Shown here: positions 3,060-19,601 of the stretch, one piece after another
Layout: the number at the start of each line of letters is the position of its first letter
Numbering within the stretch: the stretch's first letter is position 1
Origin: Verrucomicrobiota bacterium
GTDB taxonomy: Bacteria > Verrucomicrobiota > Verrucomicrobiia > Opitutales > Cerasicoccaceae
Length of the DNA: 64,000 bases
Reading direction: 5' to 3'
NCBI GenBank assembly: GCA_039818205.1
Contig: JBCBUK010000003.1
Location: forward strand, 96,001-160,000
The notes under the pieces: generated by a model
Seen by the model: the letters and a program-made list of their open reading frames with translations, nothing else
Told to the model about the DNA's origin: nothing
Database searches by the model: none
Position numbers and translations under genes: made by a program

Positions 3060-4125
3060 TCTCGGATGAGTCTCTCTCGGTTATCGTGCAATCTGGCAAG
3101 TTCTTCTTTAGCCATGGGACCAAGCTCGCACGGATGCGATCTGGGCTTAGGCGTGTCATGCACTGCGGTTCCTCGAAGCGACAATAGTCCCGGCAGGGGA
3201 AGAAGGGACATTGGGGGTCGTGGACGATGGTGGCATCGGGGTGCAAGGGCCGGAACCAGCGAGGTTCGGTGGGCCCAAAAACCGCGAACACGGGCGTATC
3301 AACCGCGGCAGCCAGGTGTGCCGGCCCGGAATCATGACCGAGCATGGCGTCCGCCTGCGCCAAGGTTGCCGCGAGTGCTTGAACGGATAGGTTATCGAGG
3401 AAGGCGTCAGCGATCCCGTCGAGCGATTTCCCATGTCCTATTGGATCGGGGATGACAATCAGGCTAAAATTGAAATTCTGGCGGAGCGCTTCGACTACGG
3501 TCCGCCAGGAGGCTTCTGGCCAAAGGCGGGCTGGCTTGCCGGCACCAGTGTGCAGGACGATCCAGGGGCGAGGAAGTTCGGCTAGTTGGGTGGGTATGGC
3601 CTTGCAATACGCATCGCCAGGTAATGACGGCTGAGATTCGTTGGACGTAAGGCCAGCGTGCTCGATGAGCGCATTCCAGTCCTCCCAGCGATGCCTCGGA
3701 GTTTCTGACCAGTCGATAGCTTGGTTGAGAAACGCAGCGCTCCAGGAGTGGCGAAAACTATAGCGTTTTCTGACGCCAGCTAAGGAAAGCAATAGATGAT
3801 CGCGCGGATCGCGACGGGGTGAGAATCCGCATTCAAACTTTTGTTGGCGAAGCCCGCTAATGACTTTCAGTAGCGATTTCCAGTCCCATCGCCACAGGTG
3901 ATACTTGCCACGAAATGCCGTCCACGGTGCGGTCCACTCAATCCAGCTAACCTGGGGGAACGCGGGCGAAAGCAAGGCTATCGTCGCTGGTTTGGTGACC
4001 ACCGTAACCGATTTCCCGGAGTCGATGGCGGCCCTCAACGCAGAGCTCATGAGGATGGCATCGCCAAGGCCCCATAGCTCAAGAAAGAGCCACTTCTCGG
4101 GGATGCTCGCGTCTTGCCTTGTCAT
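3052..4125 (-). CDS. Glycosyltransferase family 9 (heptosyltransferase-like)
   Basis: LGDAIL, HTGAGKPARLWP and HDSGPAHLAAAVDTPVFAVFGPT motifs; Cys-rich tail (CPFFPCRDYC). Start placed at ATG 4125 to avoid overlap with the divergent gene. Confidence 0.88.
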   Translation of the reverse strand: MTRQDASIPEKWLFLELWGLGDAILMSSALRAAIDSGKSVTVVTKPATIALLSPAFPQVSWIEWTAPWTAFRGKYHLWRWDWKSLLKVISGLRQQKFECGFSPRRDPRDHLLLSLAGVRKRYSFRHSWSAAFLNQAIDWSETPRHRWEDWNALIEHAGLTSNESQPSLPGDAYCKAIPTQLAELPRPWIVLHTGAGKPARLWPEASWRTVVEALRQNFNFSLIVIPDPIGHGKSLDGIADAFLDNLSVQALAATLAQADAMLGHDSGPAHLAAAVDTPVFAVFGPTEPRWFRPLHPDATIVHDPQCPFFPCRDYCRFEEPQCMTRLSPDRIRASLVPWLKKNLPDCTITERDSSENG

Positions 4126-4161
4126 GATTGAATGCCGTGACGCTGTCGTAAGCGCGGGCAG

Positions 4162-5691
4162 ATGGCCAAGCAAAAATGGTTCGCCTGGTCGCTGGGTATC
4201 AACATGCTACGGGCCATGTATCTAGCTCCGGCAGTGGTGCGACCGATGGTGACGGTGGGCGGCATGCTCGCCGCAGTTGCTCTGGGTTTGCAGTTTGGCT
4301 GGGGTAGCATCATCGAGATGGTGGTAATCTGCGCAGCGCTTGCCTATGGGCTCCTCGCCGCGGTGTTCCGCTGCCGCTGGGAATCCCTCTTCATTGGTTT
4401 GCTGGTCTTTGGCTATTTGGTCGGAAATCGGGGATTCGCTCAGTTTATGCCAATTGGTCTGCCCTTACTTCCAGGGGAGGCCGGGGTGCTGATTGTCGCA
4501 GTCGCGTTGGTAGTCCGGGTACCGCTTGAGCGTGATTTCCCCTTTCGCTTAACCGCGTTGACGGTTCTGATTGGATTCTGGATCGCGACCTCGGCGGTCC
4601 ATATGTTGTTTGACCTGCCATCTTCGGGATTTTTGGCGATCCGCGATTTCGCCATGGTCTACTACGCGTTGTTTTATTTTGCCGGGGTTTCATTGGCGGA
4701 TCATCGAAACTCAATCTTGGTCATCGAGTGGGCGCTCGGCATCGGCTATTTCTTGATGAGCCTAGGCTGGATGTTGTCATCGTTGTGGCCGACCATTTTT
4801 GACTGGCTCACCTGGAAGGGGATTCCGCTGATCTTTTACAAAGGTGACTTGGTTGGCATGTTCGCCGCGACCGGTGTACTCTTCTACTATGGCTTGATTG
4901 AGCGAAGCCGCGACCGGATAGAGCGCATTGGTTTGACGATATTGATGGGTGTCTCGGCTGGGACATTGGCTTTATCGATGTCGCGCGCGGCGATGCTGGG
5001 TCTCGCCTTTGCGATTTTGGTTCTGCTCATCGCGGGACGCTGGCAGATTTTGGTTCGCTTAGCAGTTGTTGGTTTGGTCGGTTCCTGTCTGGTGATCGCG
5101 TCGGACATGCTGCAAGGCCGGGACCTAAATGAATCGCCGCTTTACGGGATGTTCGAGCACTCAGTTTCGTTGATCGATTTCTCCGGCACCTACCAATACC
5201 AGAACCCCGATTCCATTGATACGGGGGACAATAACCGCTTCCGCATCGTTTGGTGGGAATCGCTGTTTGATCACGTTATGGAGAAGGCTCCGATCCAGGG
5301 GTTAGGATTTGGATACGACCTCGCGAACCCGTTTATCCAGGAGTATTATCCATTGGGTAATGAGACATTCCAAACACGGAGCCCGCACAATTTTCTCCTC
5401 AGCGTTTTTGGCCGAACGGGATTTATTGGCGTAATTTTCTGGGCGCTTATTTTGATCGTTTGGATCTCACAAACTTGGTCCAAGACTCGCAATGCCTGGC
5501 TGGAGAAACATGCGGGACGCGCGCTGATTTACAACCTCATGGCGTGGGCAATATTTATTGGCGCGATCTTCCAAGTGGTGCTGGAAGGACCGATGGGAGC
5601 GGTGCTTTTCTGGTTGTTCTTGGGGCTTTCTCAAACCACACGGTTGGCCAACACCCAAACTCCGAAACCAGCCGAGGAATCGACAGCCTAG
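4162..5691 (+). CDS. O-antigen ligase / Wzy_C-family polytopic membrane protein
   Basis: About 12 TM helices, SMSRAA motif, a large periplasmic loop with R..W, GLGFG and RSPHNFLL (conserved His). Start uncertain (4162 or 4204). Confidence 0.8.
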   Translation: MAKQKWFAWSLGINMLRAMYLAPAVVRPMVTVGGMLAAVALGLQFGWGSIIEMVVICAALAYGLLAAVFRCRWESLFIGLLVFGYLVGNRGFAQFMPIGLPLLPGEAGVLIVAVALVVRVPLERDFPFRLTALTVLIGFWIATSAVHMLFDLPSSGFLAIRDFAMVYYALFYFAGVSLADHRNSILVIEWALGIGYFLMSLGWMLSSLWPTIFDWLTWKGIPLIFYKGDLVGMFAATGVLFYYGLIERSRDRIERIGLTILMGVSAGTLALSMSRAAMLGLAFAILVLLIAGRWQILVRLAVVGLVGSCLVIASDMLQGRDLNESPLYGMFEHSVSLIDFSGTYQYQNPDSIDTGDNNRFRIVWWESLFDHVMEKAPIQGLGFGYDLANPFIQEYYPLGNETFQTRSPHNFLLSVFGRTGFIGVIFWALILIVWISQTWSKTRNAWLEKHAGRALIYNLMAWAIFIGAIFQVVLEGPMGAVLFWLFLGLSQTTRLANTQTPKPAEESTA

Positions 5692-6332: not shown

Positions 6333-6436
6333 CCTAAAATCGTAGGTTGAGGATTTGGTGGGAGCAAGCATGCATCCCACGATATTGGGAAGCGCATACC
6401 ATTGACTTAATATCACTTCGGGGCTATGTTTACTCC

Positions 6437-6718
6437 ATGCAACCAGCCAAGCATTCACTCGTTCGACTGTGCTTCGGTTATGTGTTGATTGCGCTTTCGA
6501 CGACCTTGTGGTTGATCGCTCCCTGGCCATGGTGGATCCCGGGTCTCGACATCCTGACGCGTGCCCTCGCGGGTTTGTCGCTGATCGCTTCGGCAGAACT
6601 GAGTTTTTACCTCGGCCTATGGGTTCTGGGACCGGGCGAAGCTGAGCATTTTTATCGCTGGGCGCGGTTTAAGCGCGGCTTCCGACGCCTGATGGATTAT
6701 TTGGCGCTCAAATGGTGA
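6437..6718 (+). CDS. Small two-TM membrane protein (resembles 'transporter suffix domain' proteins)
   Basis: Pattern G..LI.LS..LW...PW.../ AE..F.LG...LG followed by a basic tail; 93 aa from ATG 6437; overlaps the convergent gene by 22 nt. Confidence 0.6.
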   Translation: MQPAKHSLVRLCFGYVLIALSTTLWLIAPWPWWIPGLDILTRALAGLSLIASAELSFYLGLWVLGPGEAEHFYRWARFKRGFRRLMDYLALKW

Positions 6719-7317
6719 CGTTGGCGCTGCCAGGAATCCAGATCATCGACGTCTTCGAGCGTGCTCAGCGACATCCCGTGCCAACCCGCTTGGTTGGCTC
6801 GGGTAATTGTTTCATCAAAGACTTTCTCTGTGCTCCAAGGCATGTCCTCGAATAGACTCGGCAGCGTGGCTTTGAGCCCGAGCAAGGTGTAGCCGCCGTC
6901 ACGGGCCGGTCCGATGACGAAGTCTTTCGAATCGAGAAAACGGTCGGCTTCCTGCAGGTACGGCGTGACCAAGCCGGGGCAGTCCGCGCCCATGAGAAAT
7001 ACTTTATGGGCTCCTTGATCCAACGCTCTTTGGGCGGCAGCTATTAGTCGGGCGCCGAGGTCGCCAGCGGGCTGTGCCTGATAGCTATCGGCACCCGGAA
7101 GCCAGGCGCGAAATTCCGCTTCGGCATCGGCCGGTGCATAGTGGATGTTGCGAAGCCAGGATGGGGGCAACTGAGCCCACTGATGTTCGACTAACCGTCG
7201 GTAGATAGCAACGGCTTCATCATTACCGCCTTCTAAATCTGCCGCCAAGCGGGTTTTGACGAGTCCCGGTCGCGGCGCCTTGAGCATCAATGCAACGTGG
7301 GTGGCGGGCTCACTCAA
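6697..7317 (-). CDS. TIGR04282/DUF2064 family transferase (rSAM/arsenosugar-associated; CofC/MobA-like nucleotidyltransferase fold)
   Basis: KAPRPGLVKTRLA, QPAGDLGARL, GADCP, IGPARDGGYTLLGL, MPWST and DVDD motifs; the TTG start at 7317 overlaps the upstream stop. Confidence 0.9.
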   Translation of the reverse strand: MSEPATHVALMLKAPRPGLVKTRLAADLEGGNDEAVAIYRRLVEHQWAQLPPSWLRNIHYAPADAEAEFRAWLPGADSYQAQPAGDLGARLIAAAQRALDQGAHKVFLMGADCPGLVTPYLQEADRFLDSKDFVIGPARDGGYTLLGLKATLPSLFEDMPWSTEKVFDETITRANQAGWHGMSLSTLEDVDDLDSWQRQRHHLSAK

Positions 7318-8083
7318 AACGATAGACAAAGTTTGAGAACGGATAGCCACCTTCGGGTTCAGCTAAACCCAGCACCAGGTGGTCAAAGAATGATTTGCTC
7401 GCGGCAAGGTTGCCCTGCAGCTCTTCAATGGGAGTTGGGGTCGTTTGAACGCCATTGGCGTAGTCGACACCAAAACACACGAGCGAGTAGGGGAGCTCCA
7501 ATTCATTGGCGAGAACCGCTTCTGGTCCGCAGGTTTGCGAGATGAAGTCAACGCCGGCCGCTTGAAGCGCTTTGATTTCCGATTTCGTGTTAAACCGTGG
7601 GCCATTTACATGGCCGTATACGCCCTCGGAAGCTGCCTGCATGGATTGCCCTTCGGCCAGGGATTGGATCGCCGCATTGAGCGAATGGTTCACCAGGCTT
7701 TCAGCGAGAAGGTGGCCACGAGCGGGATCACCCGCTTGGTCGAAAATGGTGCAAATCTCGCCGCTCGACAATCGATTGTCGGGAAAATGGATGTCTTTAG
7801 CCACTAGTGGCTGCCCCAGGGGGAGGTTTGGGTCCAGAATCCCAACCACGGAAAGCGAAACGATGGCAGTGGCTCCGGCTTGCTTCAGGGCAACAAGGTT
7901 AGCCTGGTGGTTGATGTGGTTCGGAAGATTTGTATGCTGTGCGCCATGACGGGGAAGCAACAGGGCTTTCCGGTCACCGATCGTGCCCGCCAGGAATTGC
8001 GCCTCACCAAAAGGCGTTTCCACATACTGAACATCCAAACCGGCAAAATCGTAGAAGCCGGATCCCGTAATGAATGCGATCAT
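7310..8083 (-). CDS. MTAP-family purine nucleoside phosphorylase (divergent active-site motif)
   Basis: ITGSG, ETPFG, LPRHGAQH..P..INHQAN, GPRFNTKSE, PEAVLANELELPY and VDYAN motifs. Confidence 0.88.
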   Translation of the reverse strand: MIAFITGSGFYDFAGLDVQYVETPFGEAQFLAGTIGDRKALLLPRHGAQHTNLPNHINHQANLVALKQAGATAIVSLSVVGILDPNLPLGQPLVAKDIHFPDNRLSSGEICTIFDQAGDPARGHLLAESLVNHSLNAAIQSLAEGQSMQAASEGVYGHVNGPRFNTKSEIKALQAAGVDFISQTCGPEAVLANELELPYSLVCFGVDYANGVQTTPTPIEELQGNLAASKSFFDHLVLGLAEPEGGYPFSNFVYRFE

Positions 8084-8086
8084 GGC

Positions 8087-9244
8087 CTAGCAGCAAGATC
8101 CGCCACCACCTTCGCAGCAGCTGGATGCATCATTGGTCGCCTGGTAATCTCGGCCCTTGGTTTCCCGAGGATCGCGTCGCTGATCCGGCGCAGAATCAAA
8201 TGGTTTCGCTACCTGAGGATCAATGATCTGCCGTGGCTCAATAAATTCGAAATTACCGGCATAGGGAGATTGTTGGAGAAGCTGAAAGGTTTTGTCGCAG
8301 ACTGCTTGGCGGACGCCGCGCAGGTAGCAATGGTTGTCATCGTCGTAGACCTCACTAAAAGGCCCCTTGTAGATTACTGCTTGATTGCAGTCCCAGCACT
8401 CACCCTGTTTGCCCTTGAATGCACGCAGGGTCATGGAGCGGAATTCGATCCCCTGCACCGTGCGCCAGGGTTCTTGGTCGAGCTTGAGGATCTCGATCCC
8501 GTAAAAGCCAGCGTCTTCAAATGCCTGGATAAAATCTTCTTCAGTCATGGCTCCCGAAATGCAGCCACTCCACAGATCGGGGTCTTGCTGCATCTCTTCC
8601 GGGACGGGCTCATCGGCAACGATGTCAGAAATCACCGCCCGGCCACCAAGCTTTAGGACTCGGAAAATCTCTTCAAATAGCTGTCGCTTCTCGCGGCCTT
8701 CGACAAGGTTGAGTACGCAATTGGAAACCACGACATCGACCGAATCGTCTTCGATCAGCGGCTGCTTCGTGCGAATGCTTTCCGCTACCTCGTTGAGTGC
8801 CTCGTATTGGGACAAGCTGGTGATGGGGCGCTCCTTGAGCTCTTGATCAAGTGTCTTGAGGTCCAACTTAAGGTCCTGGATGCGGCCCTTGCGAAACTCA
8901 ACGTTTGCGTATCCGAGCTTCTCAGCGATGACTGGAGCATTACGGTTGGCAACCTCGAGCATGTCGTCGGTCATGTCGACGCCGATTACTCGGCCCTCTG
9001 GCCCGACTACTTGAGAGGCAATGAAACAGATCTTTCCGGCGCCGGATCCCAGATCGAGCACGGTTTCTCCAGGCTGCACGTAGCGGGACGGATCGCCGCA
9101 GCCGTAGTCCTTAGCGATCACTTCTTCGGGGATAATCTCCAAATACTTCGGATCATAGTTTACTGGGCAGCAGAGCGCTTGCTCGCGCTCTTTGGCGGCC
9201 TCAGCGTAGCGGTTCATTACAGATGTTTGAGTATTCATTGCCAT
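8087..9244 (-). CDS. arsM: Arsenite S-adenosylmethionine methyltransferase (long form)
   Basis: LCCP, YGCG, VLDLGSGAG (SAM motif I), VIGVDMT, SNCVLNL and WSGCISGA (ArsM-type Cys set); Cys-rich C-terminus SSCCEGGGGSCC. Start 9244 or 9238. Confidence 0.88.
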   Translation of the reverse strand: MAMNTQTSVMNRYAEAAKEREQALCCPVNYDPKYLEIIPEEVIAKDYGCGDPSRYVQPGETVLDLGSGAGKICFIASQVVGPEGRVIGVDMTDDMLEVANRNAPVIAEKLGYANVEFRKGRIQDLKLDLKTLDQELKERPITSLSQYEALNEVAESIRTKQPLIEDDSVDVVVSNCVLNLVEGREKRQLFEEIFRVLKLGGRAVISDIVADEPVPEEMQQDPDLWSGCISGAMTEEDFIQAFEDAGFYGIEILKLDQEPWRTVQGIEFRSMTLRAFKGKQGECWDCNQAVIYKGPFSEVYDDDNHCYLRGVRQAVCDKTFQLLQQSPYAGNFEFIEPRQIIDPQVAKPFDSAPDQRRDPRETKGRDYQATNDASSCCEGGGGSCC

Positions 9245-9251
9245 GTCTAAA

Positions 9252-10238
9252 CTAGTTGAGTGCTCCGCCACACGACGAACCGGCTCCAGCCGTGCAGCCG
9301 AAGCAGTGGGGGCCCGTTGCAATGGGACGCGAGAAGTCTTTTTCGGTGATGTCCCAAACGCGCGGCGGTGAGTCTCCAGCCCAGATCATGCCAAGCTGTT
9401 GATTAAAGTCACAATCGTAAACATATCCCTGCCAATCAATGCTTAATGTATCGCGGCACATGAGGTGGTTTACCGAGCCCGGGTTAAAATTATCCACCAG
9501 GAGCTTCATATAGTCCGCGAGTTGTCCCTGCCGCTTTAGCCAGGAGGCAAATCGGGCAATTGGCATATTGGTGATGGTGTAGAGCTGGTGAAACTCGATC
9601 CCGAAGTGTTTTTTCAATTCCGTTTTGTAGTCGGCTTCGAGTTCGGCCTGATCGGGTGGTAGGGACGCGCCCACGGGATTGTAGACCAGATTCAGGGGCA
9701 GAGCATCATCGATTCCGTAGCCCAAGGAGTTCAAGAGCTGAAGGGCTTTGATGCTGCCGTCGAAGACGCCATCGCCGCGCTGGGCGTTAACATTGTCCGG
9801 AGAATAACAGGGCATTGAAGCGGTGATCTCGACGCGGTTTTGCGCCATAAATTCCGCAAGTCCCTCATAGCCAGGCTCCAACAGGATCGTTAAATTGCAG
9901 CGATCGATAATGCGGCGTTGGGCATCCTGAGCCCTAAGCGTTTCGATCAGGTAGCGGAAATCCGGGATCATCTCGGGGGCACCTCCCGTGAGGTCGACGA
10001 TTGGTAGGGGAAACTTTTCCAGCCATCCCAATAGGCCGTCAACCGTTTCCCGAGTCATAATTTCTTTCCGACTGGGGCCCGCATTCACATGGCAATGGAT
10101 GCAGGTGAGATTGCACAATCGGCCAACGTTAACCTGTAAGGTAGTTGGCTGGGAGCGGACGAGCTCCTGACCCGCGGCTCTCAGCGCCGCAAGGAAATTT
10201 GGCGCCGGTCTTTCGGCTATCTTCGTGTCATTTAGCAT
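9252..10238 (-). CDS. arsS: Arsenosugar biosynthesis radical SAM protein ArsS (TIGR04167-type; Cys form)
   Basis: LQVNVGRLCNLTCIHCHVNAGP (CxxxCxxC), DLTGGAPE, LNLVYNP, LMCR, YDCDFNQ and C-terminal HCFGCTAGAGSSCGGAL. Confidence 0.95.
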   Translation of the reverse strand: MLNDTKIAERPAPNFLAALRAAGQELVRSQPTTLQVNVGRLCNLTCIHCHVNAGPSRKEIMTRETVDGLLGWLEKFPLPIVDLTGGAPEMIPDFRYLIETLRAQDAQRRIIDRCNLTILLEPGYEGLAEFMAQNRVEITASMPCYSPDNVNAQRGDGVFDGSIKALQLLNSLGYGIDDALPLNLVYNPVGASLPPDQAELEADYKTELKKHFGIEFHQLYTITNMPIARFASWLKRQGQLADYMKLLVDNFNPGSVNHLMCRDTLSIDWQGYVYDCDFNQQLGMIWAGDSPPRVWDITEKDFSRPIATGPHCFGCTAGAGSSCGGALN

Positions 10239-10255
10239 GAGTGGGCAATCTCTTT

Positions 10256-10283
10256 AGCATGTGTGCGTCGCGTTGAAGGTCAA
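10256..10283 (-). promoter_or_regulatory. Possible sigma70-type promoter for the arsS operon
   Basis: Minus strand TTGACC-N16-CATGCT, ending 18 nt before the arsS ATG. Confidence 0.3.
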
Positions 10284-10351
10284 TTCCTTGCAAAGTATCT
10301 CCGAACCTGATTTACCTGTAATGAAACCAACGGTGTCGCGACCAATTGGGA

Positions 10352-11083
10352 ATGAAACGCTTCTTAGCATTGCTATTCTTTGCCGCATGGACCTCGCTGA
10401 ACGCCGGGACCCATTCGGACTTGTATAACTCCTATGGTGAGTTGCTGTCCAAATACGTTAAACCATCAGGAGTAGATTATCAATCCTGGGTGGTCAATGA
10501 CGAGGATGTGGACGCGCTTTACGATTTGCTCATGGCGATGTCCATTGTCGACGTCGACTCACTGTCTGATGACGAGCAGCAGGCGTTTTACATCAATTTA
10601 TACAATGCGGCAATGATCCAAGCAGTCTTGGAGAATTATCCGCTTAAGACGGTCACGACGATATTGCCGGGTTTTGGGATTTTCGAAAAGAAATACATCC
10701 AGCTGGGCGACCGCGTATTGTCGCTGAACGAAGTTGAAAAATCGATTTTGTTGGAGCGGTGGGACGAGCCTCGGATTCATTTTGCGGTCAATTGCGCCAG
10801 TGCTAGTTGCCCGCCTTTGCGCAACGAGCCCTTTACCGGCGAAAAGCTGGAAACCCAGCTACAAGAGCAGACCGAACAGTTTGCTGAAACCAAGCATGCT
10901 CTTCGACTCGACCGCAAAAACCGCACTGCCTATGTCAGCTCATTGTTTGATTGGTATGCTGACGACTTTCCCGGTGATTCACCGCTACACTACCTGAACC
11001 GCTACCGTCAGAAATCGATTCCAACTCGCTACAAGGTGAAGTTCATCAACTATGACTGGTCGCTCAACGAAGCCAAAAACTAG
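10352..11083 (+). CDS. DUF547 family exported protein
   Basis: Signal peptide MKRFLALLFFAAWTSLNA; AFYINLYNA, RIHFAVNCASASCPPL, FDWYADDF and YDWSLN motifs. Confidence 0.92.
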   Translation: MKRFLALLFFAAWTSLNAGTHSDLYNSYGELLSKYVKPSGVDYQSWVVNDEDVDALYDLLMAMSIVDVDSLSDDEQQAFYINLYNAAMIQAVLENYPLKTVTTILPGFGIFEKKYIQLGDRVLSLNEVEKSILLERWDEPRIHFAVNCASASCPPLRNEPFTGEKLETQLQEQTEQFAETKHALRLDRKNRTAYVSSLFDWYADDFPGDSPLHYLNRYRQKSIPTRYKVKFINYDWSLNEAKN

Positions 11084-11114
11084 TCTCACGAACCCAAACT
11101 TTTTGTAAGGTCTT

Positions 11115-13418
11115 ATGGCTGCTATTTCTCGCTACTATCACTGGCTCCACGGCAAATGGCCGTCGGGTGCCACCGAAAAAATGCCCAAGATCGCTGAAGA
11201 TGGGCAAACCGACATTCCCGGCGTTCGCGTCGTGGGTGACTTGACCGGTGTTCCTTTGCTCAAGTTCTCCGCCGACACCGGGGCAAAGGCCATCGATGGC
11301 ATCCTCGCCGAAAACGATTTCAAGCCAGGAGACGATCCCGAAGTCTTGGACGTCGCGATCATTGGAGCAGGGGTGTCGGGTATCTCTGCCGCGATCCAAG
11401 CCAAGAAGGCAGGCCTGCGCTACGAGGTGTTTGAATCTCAGGAAAGCTTTTCGACGATCCGGAATTTTCCGCGTCGCAAGCCAATTTACACCTATCCGAC
11501 CAACATGGAGCCGGCGGGCGAAATGCGGTTTCGCGCTGATGTGAAGGAAGATTTGCTCGTTGAGCTCGAAGCGCAGCGCGTTGAGCACGGTATTGAAACA
11601 ACCGTTGGAGAGGTCGACCACGTCGAACACGGTGGAAGCGGCCTTAAGGTCGTTTTCAAGGAGAAGTCAGGCCGTGACCCACAGCGGGCGCAGCGCGTCA
11701 TTGTGGCAATTGGCCGGACGGGTAATTTCCGGAAGCTGAATGTCCCCGGCGAGAATTTGGACAAGGTGTCGAATCGCCTGATTGATGCCCGCGAGTTCAA
11801 GGGGCAAAAGGTGCTCGTCGTTGGCGGTGGAGACTCGGCTTTGGAAGCTGCCATCTCTTTGGCGGAAGAAGGTGCCGAGGTAACGCTCAGCTATCGCAGC
11901 GCCGAGTTCAAACGCCCGAAGCCAGACAATATCGATCGTATTCAGCAGATGGCGAAAGACGGGGAGTTGGCCCTGATGATGCGCTCGAACGTTCAGGATA
12001 TTGGTGAGGAATCAGTCACGATCTGCGATGAGAATGATCAGGACGTTACCAAATCCATTGACCAGGTCTTTATTTTGATTGGCCGTGAGCCACCCTTGGA
12101 TTTTTTCCGGAAGTCGAAAGTTTCCATTATCGGAGAGCTGACGACGAAGAGCATCATTGGGTTGGTCGCCTTCCTGGCGGTGATGACTTTTCTCTACCAC
12201 CTGAAGGCCTACAAGCCATTCCTGGGAATTCCGGGAACGAATCTCTGGCAGGTCTTTTCCGCCAACAAATGGTTCCCATTCAATCTGCCGATTGCAGGGG
12301 GTGATAGCAGTTTCCTGCATGTGATCACCAAGAATGCTGCCAGCGATCCAGGCTTCCTCTTCGCCTTCCTGTACACGATGGTGATCGTCATTTTTGGGGC
12401 AAAGCGGATCAAGCGGCGTAAAACACCGTACGTAACCCGACAGACGCTCACCCTGATGGCGTTTCAGGTGATTCCGTTGTTCATTCTTCCTTACGTGGTG
12501 TTGCCTTGGATGGGGGCGAACGGCTGGTTTACCAGCGGCGGAATTGGTGAGTGGTTTGGCATGACTTTCTTGTCGAACGGCCCCGGAACCACGCCGGACC
12601 AGTATTGGCGGGCCTTCGGGTTTATTCTGGCCTGGCCCTTGTTCATTTACAACGTGTTCACCCCGGGTCCGCTTTGGGGGTGGCTCGTGTTGAGCCTGAT
12701 CCAGACTTTCATCATTATCCCGCTGATTGTTCGTCGCTGGGGGAAGGGTGCCTATTGCGGATGGATTTGCTCCTGCGGCGCGATGGCTGAAACCTTGGGC
12801 GACCAGCATCGACACAAGATGCCCCATGGCCCCAAGGTCAATCGCCTGAACATGATCGGGCAGGCTATCTTGGCGATCGCTTTCCTGCTACTGGCGTTGA
12901 GAGTCGTCGGCTGGGTCGTCCCCAACAACGGATTCAACCAGTTTGTTTCGGGGTTAATCGGGGACAACAGTTTCTTCAGCTACAAGGTCATCATCGACCT
13001 GTGGCTCGCCGGTGCGATTGGCTATGGATTGTATTTTCATTATTCCGGTCGGGTCTGGTGCCGCTTTGCGTGTCCTCTGGCCGCATTGATGCACATTTAC
13101 GCCCGTTTCTCGAAATTCCGCATTTTCGCCGACAAGAAGAAGTGCATCTCGTGTAACGCCTGCACGTCGATTTGCCACCAGGGCATCGATATCATGAATT
13201 TCGCGAACAAGGGGCTTCCCCTGGAGGATCCCGAGTGCGTCCGCTGTTCAGCTTGTGTGCAGGTTTGCCCGACCGGCGTGCTGAATTTCGGACGCTTCGA
13301 CAAGAACGACAAAGCAGTCCTCGAACGCCTTTGGGCCTCGCCGGTGCAGATGCGTGAAGCGGAGATCAGTGCGACGCCGATTGACGATTATTTGTCCCAG
13401 GCAACGAAAAAAGTCTGA
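11115..13418 (+). CDS. FAD/NAD(P)H oxidoreductase (TrxR/YpdA-like) fused to a NapH/FixG-like membrane iron-sulfur domain
   Basis: IIGAGVSG (FAD), VVGGGDSALE (NAD(P)H), about 7 TM helices, CGWICSCG and CRFACP motifs, and two [4Fe-4S] motifs CISCNACTSICH and CVRCSACVQVCP. Confidence 0.88.
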   Translation: MAAISRYYHWLHGKWPSGATEKMPKIAEDGQTDIPGVRVVGDLTGVPLLKFSADTGAKAIDGILAENDFKPGDDPEVLDVAIIGAGVSGISAAIQAKKAGLRYEVFESQESFSTIRNFPRRKPIYTYPTNMEPAGEMRFRADVKEDLLVELEAQRVEHGIETTVGEVDHVEHGGSGLKVVFKEKSGRDPQRAQRVIVAIGRTGNFRKLNVPGENLDKVSNRLIDAREFKGQKVLVVGGGDSALEAAISLAEEGAEVTLSYRSAEFKRPKPDNIDRIQQMAKDGELALMMRSNVQDIGEESVTICDENDQDVTKSIDQVFILIGREPPLDFFRKSKVSIIGELTTKSIIGLVAFLAVMTFLYHLKAYKPFLGIPGTNLWQVFSANKWFPFNLPIAGGDSSFLHVITKNAASDPGFLFAFLYTMVIVIFGAKRIKRRKTPYVTRQTLTLMAFQVIPLFILPYVVLPWMGANGWFTSGGIGEWFGMTFLSNGPGTTPDQYWRAFGFILAWPLFIYNVFTPGPLWGWLVLSLIQTFIIIPLIVRRWGKGAYCGWICSCGAMAETLGDQHRHKMPHGPKVNRLNMIGQAILAIAFLLLALRVVGWVVPNNGFNQFVSGLIGDNSFFSYKVIIDLWLAGAIGYGLYFHYSGRVWCRFACPLAALMHIYARFSKFRIFADKKKCISCNACTSICHQGIDIMNFANKGLPLEDPECVRCSACVQVCPTGVLNFGRFDKNDKAVLERLWASPVQMREAEISATPIDDYLSQATKKV

Positions 13419-13494
13419 TTACTAACCCAGCATTGCCGGTGCTTTGATCTTGCTAGGATGGTCGGAAGCCATTCTCTGGACGAATCTTTTCTAA

Positions 13495-14976
13495 ATGGTG
13501 CTATTCTCTCACTTAATCTGGTGGACCTACGGACTGATGTGCTTTTTGCTTTTCGCATACGGCATCAACAGCTACGTCCTGATCGCATTGTTCGGGCGCC
13601 GCAAGCGGTTAGCCCTCGAAGATAATAAGCACCGCGCGGAGCAGTTTACTCAGAAGCTGGACAAAGGCGACGCTCAATGGCCACGGGTCTTGACGCAGTT
13701 GCCGGTCTACAACGAGCTGAATGTCGCTGAGCGTGTAATCCGAGCTGCGGTCGCCATGGAATACCCGGAAGGCTTGCATGAGGTCCAGGTCCTGGACGAC
13801 TCGACCGACGAAACTTGCGGAATGATCGATAAGGTCGTTGAGGAGTTGCAGGCCGAAGGCAAAAACGTGCGGGTGGTTCGTCGGGAGGATCGAGTCGGCT
13901 TTAAGGCAGGCGCATTAAATGAGGGGATGCACCAAAGCGATGCGCCACTGATTGCAATCTTTGACAGCGACTTCGTGCCTAATCCCGACTTTTTGTTGCG
14001 CAGCGTGCCGCAGATTGTTGAGCAGCCGGAAGTTGCTTTGGTGCAAGCGCGGTGGGGTCATCTAAACGATGACGAGTCCTGGTTGACCCGTTCGCTATCG
14101 ATTGGTATCGACGGTCACTTTGCCATCGAGCAACCCGCGCGGGCCTGGAACCAGCTCTACTTGAATTTTAATGGAACCGCCGGGGTGTGGCGCCGTGAAG
14201 CGATCGTTGATGCCGGTGGCTGGGAGGCTGATACGCTTACCGAAGACATGGACTTGTCCTACCGGGCTCAAATGAAAGGCTGGCGGATCCACTATTTGTT
14301 CGACGTCGCAGTACCGGCTGAGTTGCCGAATACCTTCGCCGCGTTCAAGAGCCAGCAGTTTCGTTGGGCCAAGGGATCTATCCAAACGGCGATCAAGCAC
14401 CTGCCTCGGGTGATCAAATCGAACGTGGGCACATTTAAGAAGGTGCAATCGATCTTCCACCTGACGCATTATTACATCCATATTTGCATGCTCTCGCTGG
14501 CTTTGCTGGCTTTGCCACTCCTATTTGCGCAGAACGCCGCACCGAGCCCCTGGGTCTGGATCGTGATCTCCTTACCGATTCTCCTGTCGACCGTTGGGCC
14601 GAGCCTGTTATATGTCGTCAGCCAGTTTGCCATCGATCCGCGGGTCGCCTGGCGGAAGCTTCGTTATTTGCCGGGTCTTATCCTGATTGGTTTTGGCATC
14701 TCGCTTTCAAATGCCCGGGCGGTTGTCGAGGCGCTTATTGGCCGCAAGACGGAGTTCGTGCGAACGCCCAAATGCGGTGTTTCCTCGCTGAAAAAATATA
14801 AGCTACCGAAGAACAGCCTACCTTGGTTTGAGATCCTTTTGGGTGCATACTGCCTTTTCACTTTGGTGTTGGCCTTGAAACTGGATCGTCCGGCATTGGG
14901 ACCGTTCATTCTGGTCTACATTATTGGATACTTGACGGTGGGCGGCTGTAGTTTGATGGAAACCCGGCGTCAGTAA
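13495..14976 (+). CDS. Cellulose-synthase-like GT2 membrane glycosyltransferase
   Basis: QLPVYNE, DDSTD, FKAGAL, FDSDF, LTEDMDLS and QQFRWAKG (D,D,D,QxxRW signature); N- and C-terminal TM helices. Confidence 0.92.
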   Translation: MVLFSHLIWWTYGLMCFLLFAYGINSYVLIALFGRRKRLALEDNKHRAEQFTQKLDKGDAQWPRVLTQLPVYNELNVAERVIRAAVAMEYPEGLHEVQVLDDSTDETCGMIDKVVEELQAEGKNVRVVRREDRVGFKAGALNEGMHQSDAPLIAIFDSDFVPNPDFLLRSVPQIVEQPEVALVQARWGHLNDDESWLTRSLSIGIDGHFAIEQPARAWNQLYLNFNGTAGVWRREAIVDAGGWEADTLTEDMDLSYRAQMKGWRIHYLFDVAVPAELPNTFAAFKSQQFRWAKGSIQTAIKHLPRVIKSNVGTFKKVQSIFHLTHYYIHICMLSLALLALPLLFAQNAAPSPWVWIVISLPILLSTVGPSLLYVVSQFAIDPRVAWRKLRYLPGLILIGFGISLSNARAVVEALIGRKTEFVRTPKCGVSSLKKYKLPKNSLPWFEILLGAYCLFTLVLALKLDRPALGPFILVYIIGYLTVGGCSLMETRRQ

Positions 14977-16979
14977 TGACGCCCGTTGACCAATTGCGTA
15001 ATTGGGTGTTTTGCCTCCTGGCGATTCTGCTCGTTGCGGTCGCATTGGTCTACGGGGAGATTGTGACAGCGTTCGATGCCGAGGGTGTTGCTCGGGTTTG
15101 GATTTATTTCTTGTTGGGGTTGAGCGGGTTTGCGCTGGTGTTCTGTTGGCCGCGACTGACGCCGAAGCGAGAGGTGGCTTTGCTACTCCTTTTGGGCGCT
15201 GTGGTGCGCTTGGCTCTTTTGCCAACAGCACCCTCAGACGACATCCATCGCTACCTATGGGAGGGTAAACTTGTTGCCGATGGCGTGAGCCCGTATGCGG
15301 CCACGGCCGATGACCCCATCTTCGCTGCCTATTTCGATGACCAGTGGGAGCGGATGAACCATCGGGACAAATGGACGGCCTATCCGCCTGGATCGGAACT
15401 CGTGTTCGCGCTGCTGGCAAAAATCAGTTACAGCACAACGGCGTTTAAGTTGGCGTTTATCGGGTTAGACCTGGTGGTTGTCGCCTTGGTGGCTGGCTTG
15501 CTGCACTTTCGATCGCTACCACTTCGCTGGGCTGGCTTCTATGCGTTTAACCCGATTGTGCTCATCTCATTTGCCGGGGAAGGACACTTCGATGTGCTGA
15601 TGATTGCACCCATGGTGGCCGCAGTTCTCGCCTCGGAACATAAGCGGTATTGGTTGGCTTTTGTCCTGTTGGGGATTGCGGTTCAGATGAAGATTTTCGC
15701 GCTCCTGGCGTTACCGTTTCTGATACGCGAGTGCGGATGGAAATACCTCGGTGCATTTATTCTCACGGTGGTGGTCATCTCGATTCCCTTCGCGGCGGAT
15801 ATTGGTAACATGGTCAATGGGCTTTTCCTTTTCGGCTCGGGGCGTAGTTTCAATGGCTTCGTGTATGATACCTGGCTGCGATGGTTTGATTCCCGGACCG
15901 TCGCGAACATCATTACGGCTGTTTTATTTTTGGGCCTCTGCGCATGGCGTTATTTTTCCAAAGCGCGATCCCATTGGGAAGGGGATTGGTATTTCGTTAT
16001 TGGAGCGCTGTTGATTCTTAGTCCGACGGTTCACTTTTGGTACCTGACATGGTTATTGCCCTTTGTCGCGCTACGCCCATCGATCGCGTGGCTTTGCTTT
16101 AGTTTAACCATGGGCGTCTATTTCCTGGTTTGGTCCAACGCCGAGTCGGGAGCGTGGGGCCTTACTCGCTTTGAATCAGGATTAATCTGGGTTCCGTTCT
16201 TGGCACTAGGGATTTATGAATGGACCCACTTTCATCGCAAGAAGGTGGAACGCCGTCGTGATTTTCCTGAAGGCTTGTCGGTTATCATACCGACCTTCAA
16301 TGCGGCCGATCATTTGCCTGACTGCTTGCAGTCGGTTGAAGCATCGAGCACGCCCGCTGAGGAGATCATTGTCGCGGACGGCGGCTCAACCGATAACACT
16401 TTGAACGTGGCTTCGCGAAACGAATGCCAGGTGGTGACGAGCCCGCTCGGGCGGGGAGAGCAGATTGCTGCTGGCTTGGAGCAGGCTAAGTATCGCTATG
16501 TGTTGATCTTGCACGCTGATTGCGTTCTGGGAACGCATGCCATCAAGCGCCTTCATCGACTCCTGAAAGATTCTCCGTTTGTGGTCGGCGGTTCCCTCGG
16601 ACAGCGCTTTAATCGGGCGAGCCCGATGTTGTTGTTTATTGAGGTGCTGAACGAGATTCGGGCAACGGTAGGCAGCGTGTCATTTGGAGATCAGGCGCAG
16701 TTTTTTGACCGTCGCTATCTTTCCAATGAGGCCTACCCGGCGCAGCCTTTGATGGAGGACGTAGAGCTGAGCCTGCGACTTCGTGAGCGGGGCCAGTGTG
16801 CTTATCTGGGTGAGGAGTTGGTCTCGGAAAGCGCGAAATGGCAACGCGTTGGCAGTTGGCAACGGATTGCCTTGGTATTTCGCTTTGTCGCCGTGTACCG
16901 TTGGACGCGGATCTGGTTTCCGGGGAAGGTCGGTGAGCTTAGCCGACGCCTTTACCGTGAGTATTATAGGCAGTCTTGA
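14976..16979 (+). CDS. Fusion of a GT-C (GT87/DUF2029-like) membrane glycosyltransferase and a TIGR04283-type GT2 domain
   Basis: N-terminal ~430 aa polytopic domain with SDDIHRYLWEG, YPP, NP, GHFD and VHFWY; from ~16272 a GT2 domain with SVIIPTFNA, DGGSTD, HAD, FGDQAQF and PLMEDVEL. Confidence 0.85.
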   Translation: MTPVDQLRNWVFCLLAILLVAVALVYGEIVTAFDAEGVARVWIYFLLGLSGFALVFCWPRLTPKREVALLLLLGAVVRLALLPTAPSDDIHRYLWEGKLVADGVSPYAATADDPIFAAYFDDQWERMNHRDKWTAYPPGSELVFALLAKISYSTTAFKLAFIGLDLVVVALVAGLLHFRSLPLRWAGFYAFNPIVLISFAGEGHFDVLMIAPMVAAVLASEHKRYWLAFVLLGIAVQMKIFALLALPFLIRECGWKYLGAFILTVVVISIPFAADIGNMVNGLFLFGSGRSFNGFVYDTWLRWFDSRTVANIITAVLFLGLCAWRYFSKARSHWEGDWYFVIGALLILSPTVHFWYLTWLLPFVALRPSIAWLCFSLTMGVYFLVWSNAESGAWGLTRFESGLIWVPFLALGIYEWTHFHRKKVERRRDFPEGLSVIIPTFNAADHLPDCLQSVEASSTPAEEIIVADGGSTDNTLNVASRNECQVVTSPLGRGEQIAAGLEQAKYRYVLILHADCVLGTHAIKRLHRLLKDSPFVVGGSLGQRFNRASPMLLFIEVLNEIRATVGSVSFGDQAQFFDRRYLSNEAYPAQPLMEDVELSLRLRERGQCAYLGEELVSESAKWQRVGSWQRIALVFRFVAVYRWTRIWFPGKVGELSRRLYREYYRQS

Positions 16980-17147
16980 GCTGATTCGGAATCTCGATTC
17001 GCGATCGATATGCCTAAATGATTCCAATTGAGGTATTTGTGATTGTCGGCCGGGGAGGGGAATGACTGGACTTTTTGCTTGTCAATAGGGGGTCCAAACG
17101 ACACTTTTAACGGTTTTCCCTGATTTTCATCCAAATTGGAACCGCAT

Positions 17148-17363
17148 ATGCGCGACGAATACTTAATCGAAGCCCAAAAAAAAATCGAAGATCCCAACAT
17201 CCTCATCAACCTGGTGAGCCGCCGCGTTAAGCAGCTGAAATATGGGATGAAGCCACTCGTCGAGTCATTAGAAAAACTCGAGCCAGAAGACATCGCCCTG
17301 CGCGAGGTGATCGAAGGCAAGATCGACTACGAGTTATATCATTCCTCAGACTCGGCCCTTTAA
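17148..17363 (+). CDS. rpoZ: RNA polymerase omega subunit
   Basis: LINLVSRRVKQL...P...DIALREVIEGKI motif; 71 aa. Confidence 0.9.
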   Translation: MRDEYLIEAQKKIEDPNILINLVSRRVKQLKYGMKPLVESLEKLEPEDIALREVIEGKIDYELYHSSDSAL

Positions 17364-17387: not shown

Positions 17388-17418
17388 CGGATTGGCTCGA
17401 CGGGCCAGTCCGTTTTTT
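17388..17418 (+). terminator. Intrinsic terminator-like hairpin after rpoZ
   Basis: CGGATTGGCTC-gac-GGGCCAGTCCG (11-bp stem with two G-U pairs) followed by TTTTTT. Confidence 0.65.
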
Positions 17419-17431
17419 GTTTCCCACTATC

Positions 17432-17902
17432 ATGGCCAAGAAAAAGAAAGATCAAATTCGCGAGGTGCGCAATGCGAAGGCGTTCCACAACTACTTCGTG
17501 GGCGATCGTTTCGAGGCGGGCATCAAGCTCACCGGGCCAGAGGTTAAGTCGATCCGCGCTGGTAAGGGGCAGATCTCTGAGTCCTTCGTCCGGATTGATA
17601 GCGATGGAGTGCCGACGCTTTATCACGCCTATATTGATGAGTTTCGGTTCGATAATACGGGGAAGCACAATCCGACCCGCCCGCGGAAGCTCCTCCTGCA
17701 CAAGAAGGAGATCGACCGGCTGAAGAAGGAAATGGAAGCCGGTGGCCAGGCACTCGTCCCGATCCGCCTTTATTTTAAGCAAGCGCTCATCAAGGTCGAG
17801 ATCGCTCTTTGCAAAGGAAAGAAGCTCCAGGATAAGCGCGAGTCTCTGAAAAAGAAGCAGCAGATGCGTGAGGCCGATCGCGTGGTCGCCAACCGGCGAT
17901 AA
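17432..17902 (+). CDS. smpB: SsrA-binding protein SmpB
   Basis: NAKAFHNY, FEAGIKLTGPEVKSIR, RKLLLHKKEI and KGKK..DKRE motifs. Confidence 0.97.
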   Translation: MAKKKKDQIREVRNAKAFHNYFVGDRFEAGIKLTGPEVKSIRAGKGQISESFVRIDSDGVPTLYHAYIDEFRFDNTGKHNPTRPRKLLLHKKEIDRLKKEMEAGGQALVPIRLYFKQALIKVEIALCKGKKLQDKRESLKKKQQMREADRVVANRR

Positions 17903-18425: not shown

Positions 18426-19601
18426 CTACCCCAAGTAGGTGAGGACTTTATCCACCGGCGCGGTGATTAGACAGACGGATTCAAGGGATTGCTCCTCCGT
18501 CGTTTGCTTGAGGGTATCGACGATTTTCTGGGCAGATTCTTGGGGAAGGATCATTTGAATCGCACCGAGTTCGCGGTTGAGTCGAAGACCGGAGCCCGTG
18601 ACGTCGCATTCGCTTTCGACGAACTTACCAAAGATCGTGGTGGCGCCCGGGGCACCGGCGGCCAGTGCGGCCTCCATCAGGGTGTCGACTTGGCGGCGTT
18701 TGGTGACGCAGCTAACTCGGACCAGATTGTGGAGGTATTGTCGATTGCGGACGGTACCAAAGCCGAGAAAACTGAGGGCGCCTCCTGATTTGGGTTCGTT
18801 ATCAATCAGGTTGCTCGTAGCTCGCCAGTCCGCCGACCCTTTCATGTCATCAATGGCATGGATGATCTGCGGGATGCTGGCAGCATGCCGAGTGGGCTCG
18901 GTTACTCCAGGAAGCTTAATGATGCCGCGGTGGACCTCCGTCGAATAGATGATGCCGCGGCCCGGTTCGTCGAGTCGACCCGCCGCTGCCATTGCCTCAA
19001 AAACGGCCTCGGCATCCATTTCATCCACGATGACCTGAATGGTTTCTTTGTCCGGGTTCTGGGTGAATCGGAAAATGCCTAGTCGGTCGCGGACTCCTCG
19101 CCCCTCGCAGTAATAGATCGTTGGGCCGTGGGCGCCCGCTTTGATCGCGGCCCGCGCGACCGCTTCGGAAATTGCGGACTGAACGGTGGCCGTAATCCCG
19201 ATCAAATTCCGCTTAAAGCGTATCGTGACATCGCGATGCGGGTAGGTGAGTGCGCCGTTCTGCCAGGTTGGAAAATCGTCAGTTTTGTAGAGGCTCTTGC
19301 AGGGGCTTGTGAAAACCGCGCCCGCACCAGTGAGCCGTAATTGCCCCAATGCCACGACCTTCTCCATGAGGATATCGACTTCATCGCTTGGTAGGAGGAA
19401 CTGGAGAATCTCCTGCTCGGGGCTGATAATCGGAATGAGCGCTTGATACCAGCGATCCTTGATGACAGTGCCTCGCGCGTTCAAAGCCAACAGGAAACGT
19501 GCCGGGCAATCCATCAGGAAGTCGGCGACCTCACTGCTGGTTCTTCGCGGCAAAATTACGGTGACCAGATTCTGATCTTCCTGGGCAATCCACCTAGTCA
19601 T
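18426..19601 (-). CDS. PII-like signalling protein with three tandem PII-like modules
   Basis: The central module AIKAGAHGPTIYYCEGRG...PDKETIQVIV...AGRLDEPGRGIIY is clearly PII-like; the flanking modules show the same pattern; adjacent to DUF1538. Confidence 0.75.
   Translation of the reverse strand: MTRWIAQEDQNLVTVILPRRTSSEVADFLMDCPARFLLALNARGTVIKDRWYQALIPIISPEQEILQFLLPSDEVDILMEKVVALGQLRLTGAGAVFTSPCKSLYKTDDFPTWQNGALTYPHRDVTIRFKRNLIGITATVQSAISEAVARAAIKAGAHGPTIYYCEGRGVRDRLGIFRFTQNPDKETIQVIVDEMDAEAVFEAMAAAGRLDEPGRGIIYSTEVHRGIIKLPGVTEPTRHAASIPQIIHAIDDMKGSADWRATSNLIDNEPKSGGALSFLGFGTVRNRQYLHNLVRVSCVTKRRQVDTLMEAALAAGAPGATTIFGKFVESECDVTGSGLRLNRELGAIQMILPQESAQKIVDTLKQTTEEQSLESVCLITAPVDKVLTYLG

Follow-up and report, generated by a model that had tools for sequence, protein, structure and literature searches.

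The subject of this analysis is an eight-gene arsenic block within a stretch of 64,000 nucleotides, hereafter the window, from a member of the Verrucomicrobiota (Opitutales, Cerasicoccaceae; assembly GCA_039818205.1, contig JBCBUK010000003.1, positions 96,001 to 160,000). An earlier note on the window had described two compact, divergent arms forming one arsenosugar locus, and all eight open reading frames (ORFs) were indeed located there, intact, between positions 6697 and 16979, with neighbouring genes inside an arm spaced by −41 to 76 bp and the arms separated by a divergent intergenic region of 113 bp (10239..10351). The left arm, on the reverse strand, encodes the radical SAM arsenic adenosylase ArsS, an ArsM-type arsenite methyltransferase, a phosphorylase resembling methylthioadenosine phosphorylase (MTAP) and a TIGR04282 protein; the right arm, on the forward strand, encodes a DUF547 protein, a flavin/ferredoxin reductase, a CesA-like glycosyltransferase (GT) of family GT2, and a fusion of a GT87-like membrane domain with a TIGR04283-like GT2 domain. 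The block is proposed to make an arsenic-containing membrane lipid of the beta-arsenoribosyl type by way of the TIGR04283 domain, a reading to which we give an even chance and in which all that follows the arsenic nucleoside 5'-deoxy-5'-dimethylarsinoyl-adenosine (DDMAA) is inferred.

Organization of the Arsenic Block

The arsenic block is more than a chance grouping of genes. In a genome of the same genus (G003), the flanking genes (exosortase, GT9, O-antigen ligase, a hypothetical gene, a small ORF, rpoZ and smpB) are contiguous, and approximately 130 bp are found where the window carries 10.4 kb (6719..17104, between the small ORF at 6347-6718 and rpoZ-smpB). Since the flanks adjoin at this empty site, both arms would have been gained or lost together, in keeping with the earlier view of the locus as one unit; in the other three same-genus regions compared, the left flank does not lie beside rpoZ. 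No boundary repeats of note were found at the block edges among those listed, and neither the GC nor the GC3 content of the block differed clearly from that of its flanks, which favours neither gain nor loss. Within the 113-bp gap, neither an extracytoplasmic function (ECF)-type nor a sigma-70 promoter match was found; over the window, the ECF-type pattern gave 19 matches with 17.4 expected, and the sigma-70 matches were below the chance level.

A hidden Markov model (HMM) scan covered 17 proteins of the window (1407-21534). Of the family assignments made in the earlier note, TIGR04167, TIGR04282, PF01048, DUF547 and, marginally, GT87 were confirmed above their cut-offs, and those of ArsM and TIGR04283 fell below.

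Predicted Formation of the Arsenic Nucleoside

ArsS (9252..10238, reverse strand) scores 435.1 bits with TIGR04167 (cut-off 300), also matches PF12345, and carries a CxxxCxxC motif at residues 42-49 together with cysteines 261, 276, 312, 315 and 323 in its C-terminal DUF3641 region; no solved homologue was found. Its closest named relatives are nearly all from Verrucomicrobiota, several of them Opitutales, and ArsS above the cut-off was present in 7 of 61 genomes searched, its own included, and in none of five from the same genus. The single sequencing run listed as containing this DNA is a marine metagenome, possibly the source, and no RNA data set was listed alongside it. ArsM (8087..9244, reverse strand), for which an ATG at 9244 or 9238 is a likelier start than the TTG at 9322, gave its best matches with PRK11873 (218 bits; cut-off 263) and NF040538 (339; 500). 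Its cysteines align to Cys72, Cys174 and Cys224 of the solved algal enzyme 4kw7, and a CC pair stands, by position only, at the place of the first catalytic Cys, so that four cysteines are counted in all. According to PMC8552651, most ArsM enzymes need four catalytic cysteines, and ArsM and ArsS begin arsenosugar synthesis in Synechocystis. For other members of the ArsS family, conversion of the dimethylated trivalent arsenical DMAs(III) to DDMAA is known (PMC13598754), and formation of DDMAA from arsenite by the ArsM and ArsS of this block is predicted with high confidence.

Loci carrying arsS were compared using the best 80 of at least 581 matches, 39 of these loci being shorter than 15 kb. 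A gene for a sterol-desaturase/OlsE-like lipid hydroxylase was observed close to arsS at 25 of the 80 (L004-L083).

A Distinct Nucleoside Phosphorylase

The phosphorylase (7310..8083, reverse strand) scores 77.5 bits with PF01048 (cut-off 25.1) and matches solved MTAP structures with an E-value of 1e-21, and it stays under every equivalog cut-off for MTAP and purine nucleoside phosphorylase (PNP), the highest being 148.9 against 274.85 (TIGR01694/PRK). Its homologues number 581 at E<=1e-20, and the best 120 are 49-63% identical; SQT, with Gln for Met196, occurs in 116 of these 120, a frequency taken from homologues because motif counts at metagenome loci, where the scan was seeded on those motifs, would be circular. 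As judged from its sequence, the protein belongs to a distinct MTAP-like subfamily marked by 'SQTCGPE...DYANG', and a tree made by a quick method and left unfinished separated the SQT clade from the MtnP rows. Alignment to solved MTAPs (1cb0, 5eub, 2a8y, 3ozb), to which it is approximately 30% identical, indicated a shared fold and conservation of Ser8, Arg45, His46, Ser78 and Thr184, which we take to be the phosphate-site residues, as well as His124 (His137) and Asp207 (Asp220). Unlike these enzymes, it has Gln183 at Met196 and Ala209 at Asp222, and the MTAP substrate site is not fully reproduced. In the human enzyme, Met196, Asp220 and Asp222 bind methylthioadenosine (PMC6131760).

The genomic setting of the subfamily was followed at 85 loci, namely the best 80 of 140 metagenome matches and five genomes. 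The cassette genes arsS, TIGR04282 and TIGR04283 were found at 19, 23 and 20 of them, respectively, and any one of these core genes at 36. A pentose-phosphate operon (tal-pgi, rpe, rpiB) surrounds the phosphorylase at 31 of the 85, and among the remaining 54 loci a core gene was present at 33, rising to 25 of the 29 that are at least 8 kb long, or 22 of 26 when counted as distinct proteins; this division of the loci was made after the fact. The cassette neighbours at those 22 loci agree with the earlier proposal of a dedicated phosphorylase. In a sample of 400 genomes from the phylum, the SQT subfamily occurred in five, accompanied by ArsS in four and by an ArsS-like protein, described below, in the fifth. 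In Burkholderia thailandensis, Acinetobacter portensis, L258 and G135, the cassette holds canonical MtnP; different phosphorylases were thus recruited more than once, which favours phosphorolysis as the step that follows DDMAA. On these grounds, DDMAA is probably the substrate that the enzyme cleaves. The quick tree nested the rows from pentose-phosphate operons among the cassette-linked ones.

Several other phosphorylase loci deserve mention. On marine sediment contigs (L122-L176), the SQT gene heads a pentose-phosphate operon with rpiB, rpe, a ROK kinase gene and tal-pgi, and at two loci (L161, L165) arsS lies behind the sugar genes in the same orientation, possibly a sign that the ribose moiety is catabolized. 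Genes of the C-GCAxxG-C-C type occur at 10 of the 85 loci. In Opitutales lacking arsS (L085, L086), another divergent phosphorylase (SMT..PE, without Asp220) lies beside a gene resembling methylthioribose kinase.

The TIGR04282 Protein

Directly after the phosphorylase gene, both here and at many other loci, is the gene for a TIGR04282/DUF2064 protein (6697..7350, reverse strand; the start may lie further downstream), which scores 172.1 bits with its family (cut-off 134). The protein has a GT-A fold related to that of CofC/FbiD; it matches the DUF2064 structure 3cgx at an E-value of 7.9e-27 and FbiD (6bwg) at 0.016, with KTRL and GADCP aligned. The KTRL, DxP and DVD motifs are common to it, to 3cgx and to the CofC/FbiD guanylyltransferases, but there is no F420 context at this locus, and a score of 21 bits with TIGR03552 (cut-off 105) makes the homology to the guanylyltransferases a distant one. 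We lean toward viewing it as a putative nucleotidyltransferase that provides NDP (nucleoside diphosphate)-arsenoribose.

The GT87::TIGR04283 Fusion

The last gene of the right arm joins a GT-C domain (14976..16238, forward strand) to a GT2 domain (16275..16979, forward strand). The former matches GT87 marginally (PF09594, 27.2 bits; cut-off 25) and has an SDDxxRY motif at residue 87, of which D88 and D89 do not vary among the 16 fusions compared. In a model of the fusion (pLDDT 89.7), residues 57-430 were matched by VIA-align to ALG3 (Z 28.4, root-mean-square deviation 3.3, 335 residues aligned), GPI-MT-I (Z 23.1), ALG6 (22.3) and PimE of GT87 (21.0), and residues 431-650 to GT-A enzymes; a Foldseek search with the fusion returned GT2 enzymes only among the matches listed. 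The earlier designation as GT-C was thereby upheld as a true GT-C fold by model. Across the four enzymes the likeness extends over 335-346 residues (deviation 3.1-4.0) and includes an acidic pair after the first helices, but the fusion is only 13-18% identical to them and is joined to a cytoplasmic GT2. Judging from entry titles, these closest folds presumably move a hexose from polyprenyl phosphate to a glycolipid, and from the model we infer that the GT87 domain would likewise use a polyprenyl-phosphate sugar as donor.

The GT2 domain carries HAD, GDQ and MEDVE motifs and has TIGR04283 as its best family by far (163.8 bits; cut-off 182); three other fusions score 137-158. With these motifs and its arsS/TIGR04282 neighbourhood, it is more plausibly than otherwise an arseno-ribosyltransferase. 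The two domains differ in how often they accompany the other cassette genes: TIGR04283 was found at 33 of the 80 arsS loci and 20 of the 85 phosphorylase loci, and GT87 at 13 and none, respectively. A further 20 arsS loci from another order were without GT87 and the CesA-like gene, and had a MerA-like reductase and DedA instead. Genes for VTT/DedA proteins lie near arsS at 16 of 80 loci and near the phosphorylase at 15 of 85, and 10 of the latter have a flippase-like LPG-synthase transmembrane gene.

The Remaining Right-Arm Proteins

The DUF547 protein (10352..11083, forward strand; 97 bits, cut-off 27) has, by eye, an apparent N-terminal signal peptide and an invariant C-x4-C motif. No solved homologue was found, its model (pLDDT 94.8) reached a best Z of 5.0 among 48,161 chains, giving no usable fold match, and the Atlas returned DUF547 clusters only; it is possibly a periplasmic partner for thiols or As(III). 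The following gene (11115..13418, forward strand) encodes an NAD(P)H flavin disulfide-reductase (residues 79-340) fused to a NapH/MauN-like membrane ferredoxin (residues 506-725), both below cut-offs, and is predicted to supply reductant.

The CesA/CslA-like membrane GT2 (13495..14976, forward strand; 493 aa) has the DDS, FDSD, TED and QQFRW motifs that make up the D,D,D,QxxRW pattern of processive GT2 enzymes, of which it is a putative member, and its structural matches are BcsA and the mannosyltransferase PcManGT. It is not recognized as a cellulose synthase: the CelA-like match lies below the cut-off and that with TIGR03030 (131 against 699) is confined to the catalytic part. In 38 rows with GT87 (one a duplicate), the CesA-like GT2 was seen in 18 and a GT2 resembling dolichyl-phosphate mannose (DPM) synthase in 10, never together, which would make the CesA-like enzyme a synthase of the GT87 donor. 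The earlier note had cast it as a possible maker of the acceptor; it may supply the donor instead.

The Right Arm and its Radical SAM Partners in Other Genomes

As a module, the right arm is conserved, and its order, DUF547-reductase-CesA-like GT2-GT87::TIGR04283, recurs in Opitutales, beside arsS in some cases (L053-L055, L211, L212) and far from it in others (G346, G008). The 80 arsS loci include DUF547 at 17, the reductase at 10 and the CesA-like gene at 7. Within the 400-genome sample, arsS was found in 17 genomes and a GT87-like match in 23, with 12 having both. The earlier note had named a failure of the right-arm genes to occur together with arsS as one refutation of its proposal, and in 12 of 17 arsS genomes they do occur together. 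The fusion itself is present in 16 of the 400, and 14 of these 16 have ArsS or an ArsS-like radical SAM protein, counts in which related genomes are not independent, so that the small p-values overstate the association.

Of the 11 GT87-like genomes without arsS, 6 carry a different radical SAM gene, that of the ArsS-like protein, in the cassette or the genome. Its representative (L201:4468-5400, in G126) is 23% identical to ArsS, aligns to it by hhalign with a probability of 98.1% over 248 columns, retains the ArsS C-terminal Cys pattern, and exceeds the cut-off of no NCBIfam family. It occurs in 16 of the 400 genomes (including G126, G125, G299, G342, G387, G388 and G417), where its neighbours are genes for an ArsM-like protein, DUF547, the GT87::TIGR04283 fusion or the CesA-like enzyme, and TIGR04282/TIGR04283. 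Based on its sequence and setting, this distant relative appears to take the place of ArsS in the cassette; ArsS and the ArsS-like protein were never observed in one genome, but with 0.68 genomes expected this is not evidence of exclusion.

These distributions bear on an improbable alternative, that the right arm with TIGR04282 is an arsenite-independent glycolipid or salvage module that only travels with arsS, its substrate being an environmental arsenoriboside or a non-arsenic 5-substituted ribose. Such independence would fit the two genomes (G024, G220) that retain the right arm without arsS or arsM, in one of which (G220) TIGR04282 stands directly beside the fusion, at the place that arsM has in relatives; a Pseudoalteromonas record without arsS; the 5 of 23 GT87-like genomes with neither radical SAM protein; the distance of the arm from arsS in several genomes; and the other radical SAM families in similar cassettes, one beside selD-selA-selB. 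It is opposed by the presence of ArsS or the ArsS-like protein in 18 of the 23 GT87-like genomes and 14 of the 16 fusion genomes, compared to 33 of 400 overall (kin again not being independent), by the joint gain or loss of both arms at this locus, and by G125 and G299, in which the CesA-like gene, the ArsS-like gene and arsM form a single run.

The modules without arsS or arsM (L199 in G024, L198 in G220 and L275:11950-19712 on NZ_CP013139.1) may serve in the salvage of arsenoribosides or in a function that does not involve arsenic. Cassettes of radical SAM-DUF2064-DPM-like GT2-GT87 with other radical SAM types were seen in Methylobacterium (L277:8959-12809) and Miltoncostaea (L280:7892-11909), and one cassette of this kind adjoins selD-selA-selB. 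Records titled Crocinitomicaceae and Yoonia (L073 in G451, and L020) carry arsS loci that look verrucomicrobial, and these titles may be misassigned; the loci reached through G451 in a survey aimed at Bacteroidota likewise looked verrucomicrobial.

Proposed Pathway

In the pathway proposed for the block, ArsM and ArsS would convert arsenite to DDMAA, the phosphorylase would cleave DDMAA with phosphate to adenine and the alpha form of arseno-ribose-1-phosphate, and the TIGR04282 protein would combine the latter with a nucleotide into an alpha NDP-sugar. As the terminal step, the TIGR04283 domain would then pass arseno-ribose on to a lipid of the membrane, with phosphatidylglycerol as the probable acceptor. 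The anomers follow the stereochemistry of phosphorolysis, which yields an alpha-1-phosphate, of NDP-sugars and of the inverting GT2 families, and the beta-riboside of the known arsenosugar phospholipids would result from one inverting GT2 reaction that uses an alpha NDP-sugar. The known arsenosugars and arsenolipids are listed as beta-D-ribofuranosides (PMC10456119, Table 3), and Synechocystis makes the arsenosugar phospholipids AsSugPL982/984 (PMC11009773). For the phytyl arsenosugar of algae, that review (PMC10456119) proposes a nucleosidase route, the chemistry of which differs from phosphorolysis. The TIGR04283 domain is placed at the end and GT87 made optional because TIGR04283 is common without GT87 and because other cassettes have DedA or flippase-like genes. 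GT87 would be an outer-face add-on that places a further sugar on the arsenic lipid, possibly fed with polyprenyl-phosphate hexose by the CesA-like GT2; that GT87 acts on an arsenic lipid in any role is an evenly balanced prospect. The flavin/Fe-S protein and DUF547 would probably keep arsenic or enzyme thiols reduced.

The main rival, for which the chances are distinctly lower, is that TIGR04283 loads arseno-ribose onto polyprenyl phosphate and GT87 moves it outside to a glycolipid or glycan, perhaps the product of the CesA-like enzyme, resulting in an arsenic-decorated envelope in which the riboside would likely be alpha. The terminal role of TIGR04283 is preferred, though not strongly. The fusion of both domains in 16 of 400 genomes speaks for such a carrier route, as do the fusion of GT87 to a DPM-synthase-like GT2 elsewhere (L060, L075, L207, L208, L218), the above cassettes of Methylobacterium and Miltoncostaea, which have no TIGR04283 annotation, the weak match of VTT/DedA neighbours to the undecaprenyl-phosphate transporter UptA, and the QxxRW retained by the CesA-like GT2 from processive enzymes. 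AftC, a member of GT87, takes a pentofuranosyl carrier, which is a further point in its favour. It is also favoured by four arsS genomes with GT87 (G063, G556, G558, G455) that gave no TIGR04283 match. The carrier route is at odds with the finding of TIGR04283 mostly without GT87 nearby, the 20 further arsS loci being all without it, with the hexosyltransferases as the nearest GT-C folds, and with stereochemistry, two inversions leading to an alpha-riboside unlike the known arsenosugars. The order given in the earlier note, loading of a carrier by TIGR04283 and then transfer by the GT-C, is accordingly held to be the less probable one.

A number of observations, the four genomes just named among them, weigh against the pathway with a terminal TIGR04283 step. 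At the level of single proteins, ArsM passes none of the NCBIfam cut-offs, NF038099 included (133; cut-off 400), and the TIGR04283 domain falls below its own. The relatives of TIGR04282 in the CofC group activate three-carbon phospho-acids and are not known to act on sugar phosphates. The base and substrate assigned to the phosphorylase are putative, given the changes of Asp222 to Ala and Met196 to Gln. The reading of the CesA-like GT2 as donor synthase is a weak one, because a strict exclusivity of the CesA-like and DPM-like enzymes failed outside the loci of Verrucomicrobiota: CesA-like, DPM-like and TIGR04283-like GT2 all stand together in the Pseudoalteromonas record, and genomes of the DPM type have CesA-like homologues at other places.

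Gene distribution adds to these points. The SQT phosphorylase was found at none of the 80 arsS loci, and at only 3 of the 31 pentose-phosphate loci did a core gene lie within the DNA retrieved. Among 24 genomes searched, the top-scoring PF01048 protein of six arsS genomes with the right arm is a PNP that carries Asn in place of Asp220, two (G026, G039) gave no PF01048 match at E<=1e-6, and another two have weak partial matches alone, so that phosphorolysis of DDMAA would not be universal. Enzymes with Asn at that position are of the 6-oxopurine type. G024 (100% complete) and G220 (99%) hold the fusion and TIGR04282 with no match for arsS, the ArsS-like gene or arsM, and the module is also found without arsS on the Pseudoalteromonas replicon NZ_CP013139.1, the search having covered that record and not the chromosome.

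It was previously suggested that the locus may encode the complete route from arsenite to an envelope-linked arsenosugar. As a general design this does not stand, with the phosphorylase at 0 and GT87 at 13 of 80 arsS loci, with the right arm occurring in two genomes and the Pseudoalteromonas replicon where no arsS was found, and with a separate arsR-arsC-aquaporin operon in this genome. That the block nonetheless holds a full route from arsenite to a new arsenic-bearing envelope glycolipid or glycan, with the fusion building or exporting an arseno-ribosyl lipid at the outer face of the membrane, the SQT protein as DDMAA phosphorylase and the ArsS-like protein as a substitute elsewhere, is considered rather doubtful.

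Arsenic Resistance Genes

The absence of ArsR, ArsC and an efflux pump noted earlier was confirmed among the 17 scanned window proteins, and the locus is therefore not an ars resistance operon; the statement does not extend to the genome, where an arsR-arsC-like-MIP channel operon lies on contig C2 (approximately 563900-565720; L271:566-2381), encoding an ArsR/SmtB regulator, an ArsC-like protein below the cut-off and an MIP channel. A genome-wide search detected no Acr3, ArsB or ArsP, the result for ArsB being weak as the control missed that of Escherichia coli, and SBF-family matches were rejected as Acr3 in favour of the PanS/BASS type. Acr3 was present in 18 of 26 relatives tested: in all four of the same genus, each without arsS, and in 9 of 13 with arsS. 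The cassette is thus separate from efflux, yet resistance genes are not absent from the genome.

We regard as the least probable of the alternatives that the block serves mainly in detoxification or sequestration, ArsM and ArsS trapping arsenite and the phosphorylase merely recovering adenine, with either soluble arsenoribose or exported arsenic as the end product. The lack of Acr3 in a genome whose four tested same-genus relatives have it, the retained arsR-arsC-like-MIP operon and the pentose-phosphate setting of the phosphorylase in sediment lineages could be read in this way. The nine arsS genomes that also have Acr3 count against it, as do the absence of ArsR from the locus and the TIGR04282 gene directly after the phosphorylase here and at many loci; moreover, four membrane or lipid-linked enzymes would be superfluous for the purpose. 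The earlier preference for biosynthesis rather than detoxification is consistent with this independence of efflux.

Relation to Known Systems

The ArsM-ArsS pathway of Synechocystis PCC 6803 likewise has adjacent arsM and arsS genes, an ArsS above the TIGR04167 cut-off and DDMAA formed from DMAs(III). Unlike that organism, the host here is a heterotroph of the Verrucomicrobiota, six further genes stand in the same block, and ArsM is of another clade than the AsSugarArsM of NF038099 (133 against 400). The link between ArsS, TIGR04282 and TIGR04283 is already known, as NCBIfam names both latter families 'arsenosugar biosynthesis glycosyltransferase'; the corresponding cassette combines the three with DUF547, TVP38/DedA and an FAD oxidoreductase, and is annotated on plasmids of Burkholderia, Acinetobacter and Thiodictyon, a nucleoside phosphorylase being present in two of the three. 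The present block has the core genes, DUF547 and a flavin oxidoreductase in common with it but differs in that TIGR04283 is fused to GT87, a CesA-like GT2 is added, DedA is missing from the locus, the reductase is a flavin::membrane-ferredoxin protein and not MerA-like, and the phosphorylase is of the SQT type and not canonical MtnP.

In the literature searched, which left most subscription journals outside, arsenosugar was never joined with phosphorylase, GT87, DUF547 or DUF2064, no enzyme after ArsS was assigned, and no paper treated the late steps by its title or the start of its abstract; none of the papers searched was found to describe the SQT subfamily, the module with the GT87 fusion or the substitute for ArsS. 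Arsenosugar phospholipids dominate marine arsenolipid pools, part of them apparently bacterial, according to a preprint (bioRxiv 10.1101/2021.03.22.436501). Against this background, the block provides candidates for every step after ArsS on 10 kb of a heterotroph's DNA that can be cloned as a single fragment, and an ordered, falsifiable prediction (phosphorolysis, NDP activation and one inverting transfer) by which an open pathway could be tested in a single construct. Should the GT87 module act on an arsenic lipid, bacteria would deliberately produce, in their envelope, arsenic glycolipids that go beyond the series known so far. With the ArsS-like substitute, more genomes would count as capable of C-As bond formation.

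Neighbouring Genes

To the left of the block (1407-5691) lie genes for an exosortase fused to an EpsI-like domain, GT9 and O-antigen ligase, and because these genes are conserved in G003 they are not considered part of it. The small, membrane-like ORF at 6347-6718 (forward strand), the stop of which overlaps that of the TIGR04282 gene, gave no HMM match and is 53% conserved in G003, where it borders the empty site. Directly to the right are rpoZ (17148-17363) and smpB (17417-17902), both on the forward strand, followed on the reverse strand (18426-21534) by genes for a DUF1538 protein of 646 aa that resembles fused UmpA and UmpB, and for a P-II-like repeat protein of 391 aa.

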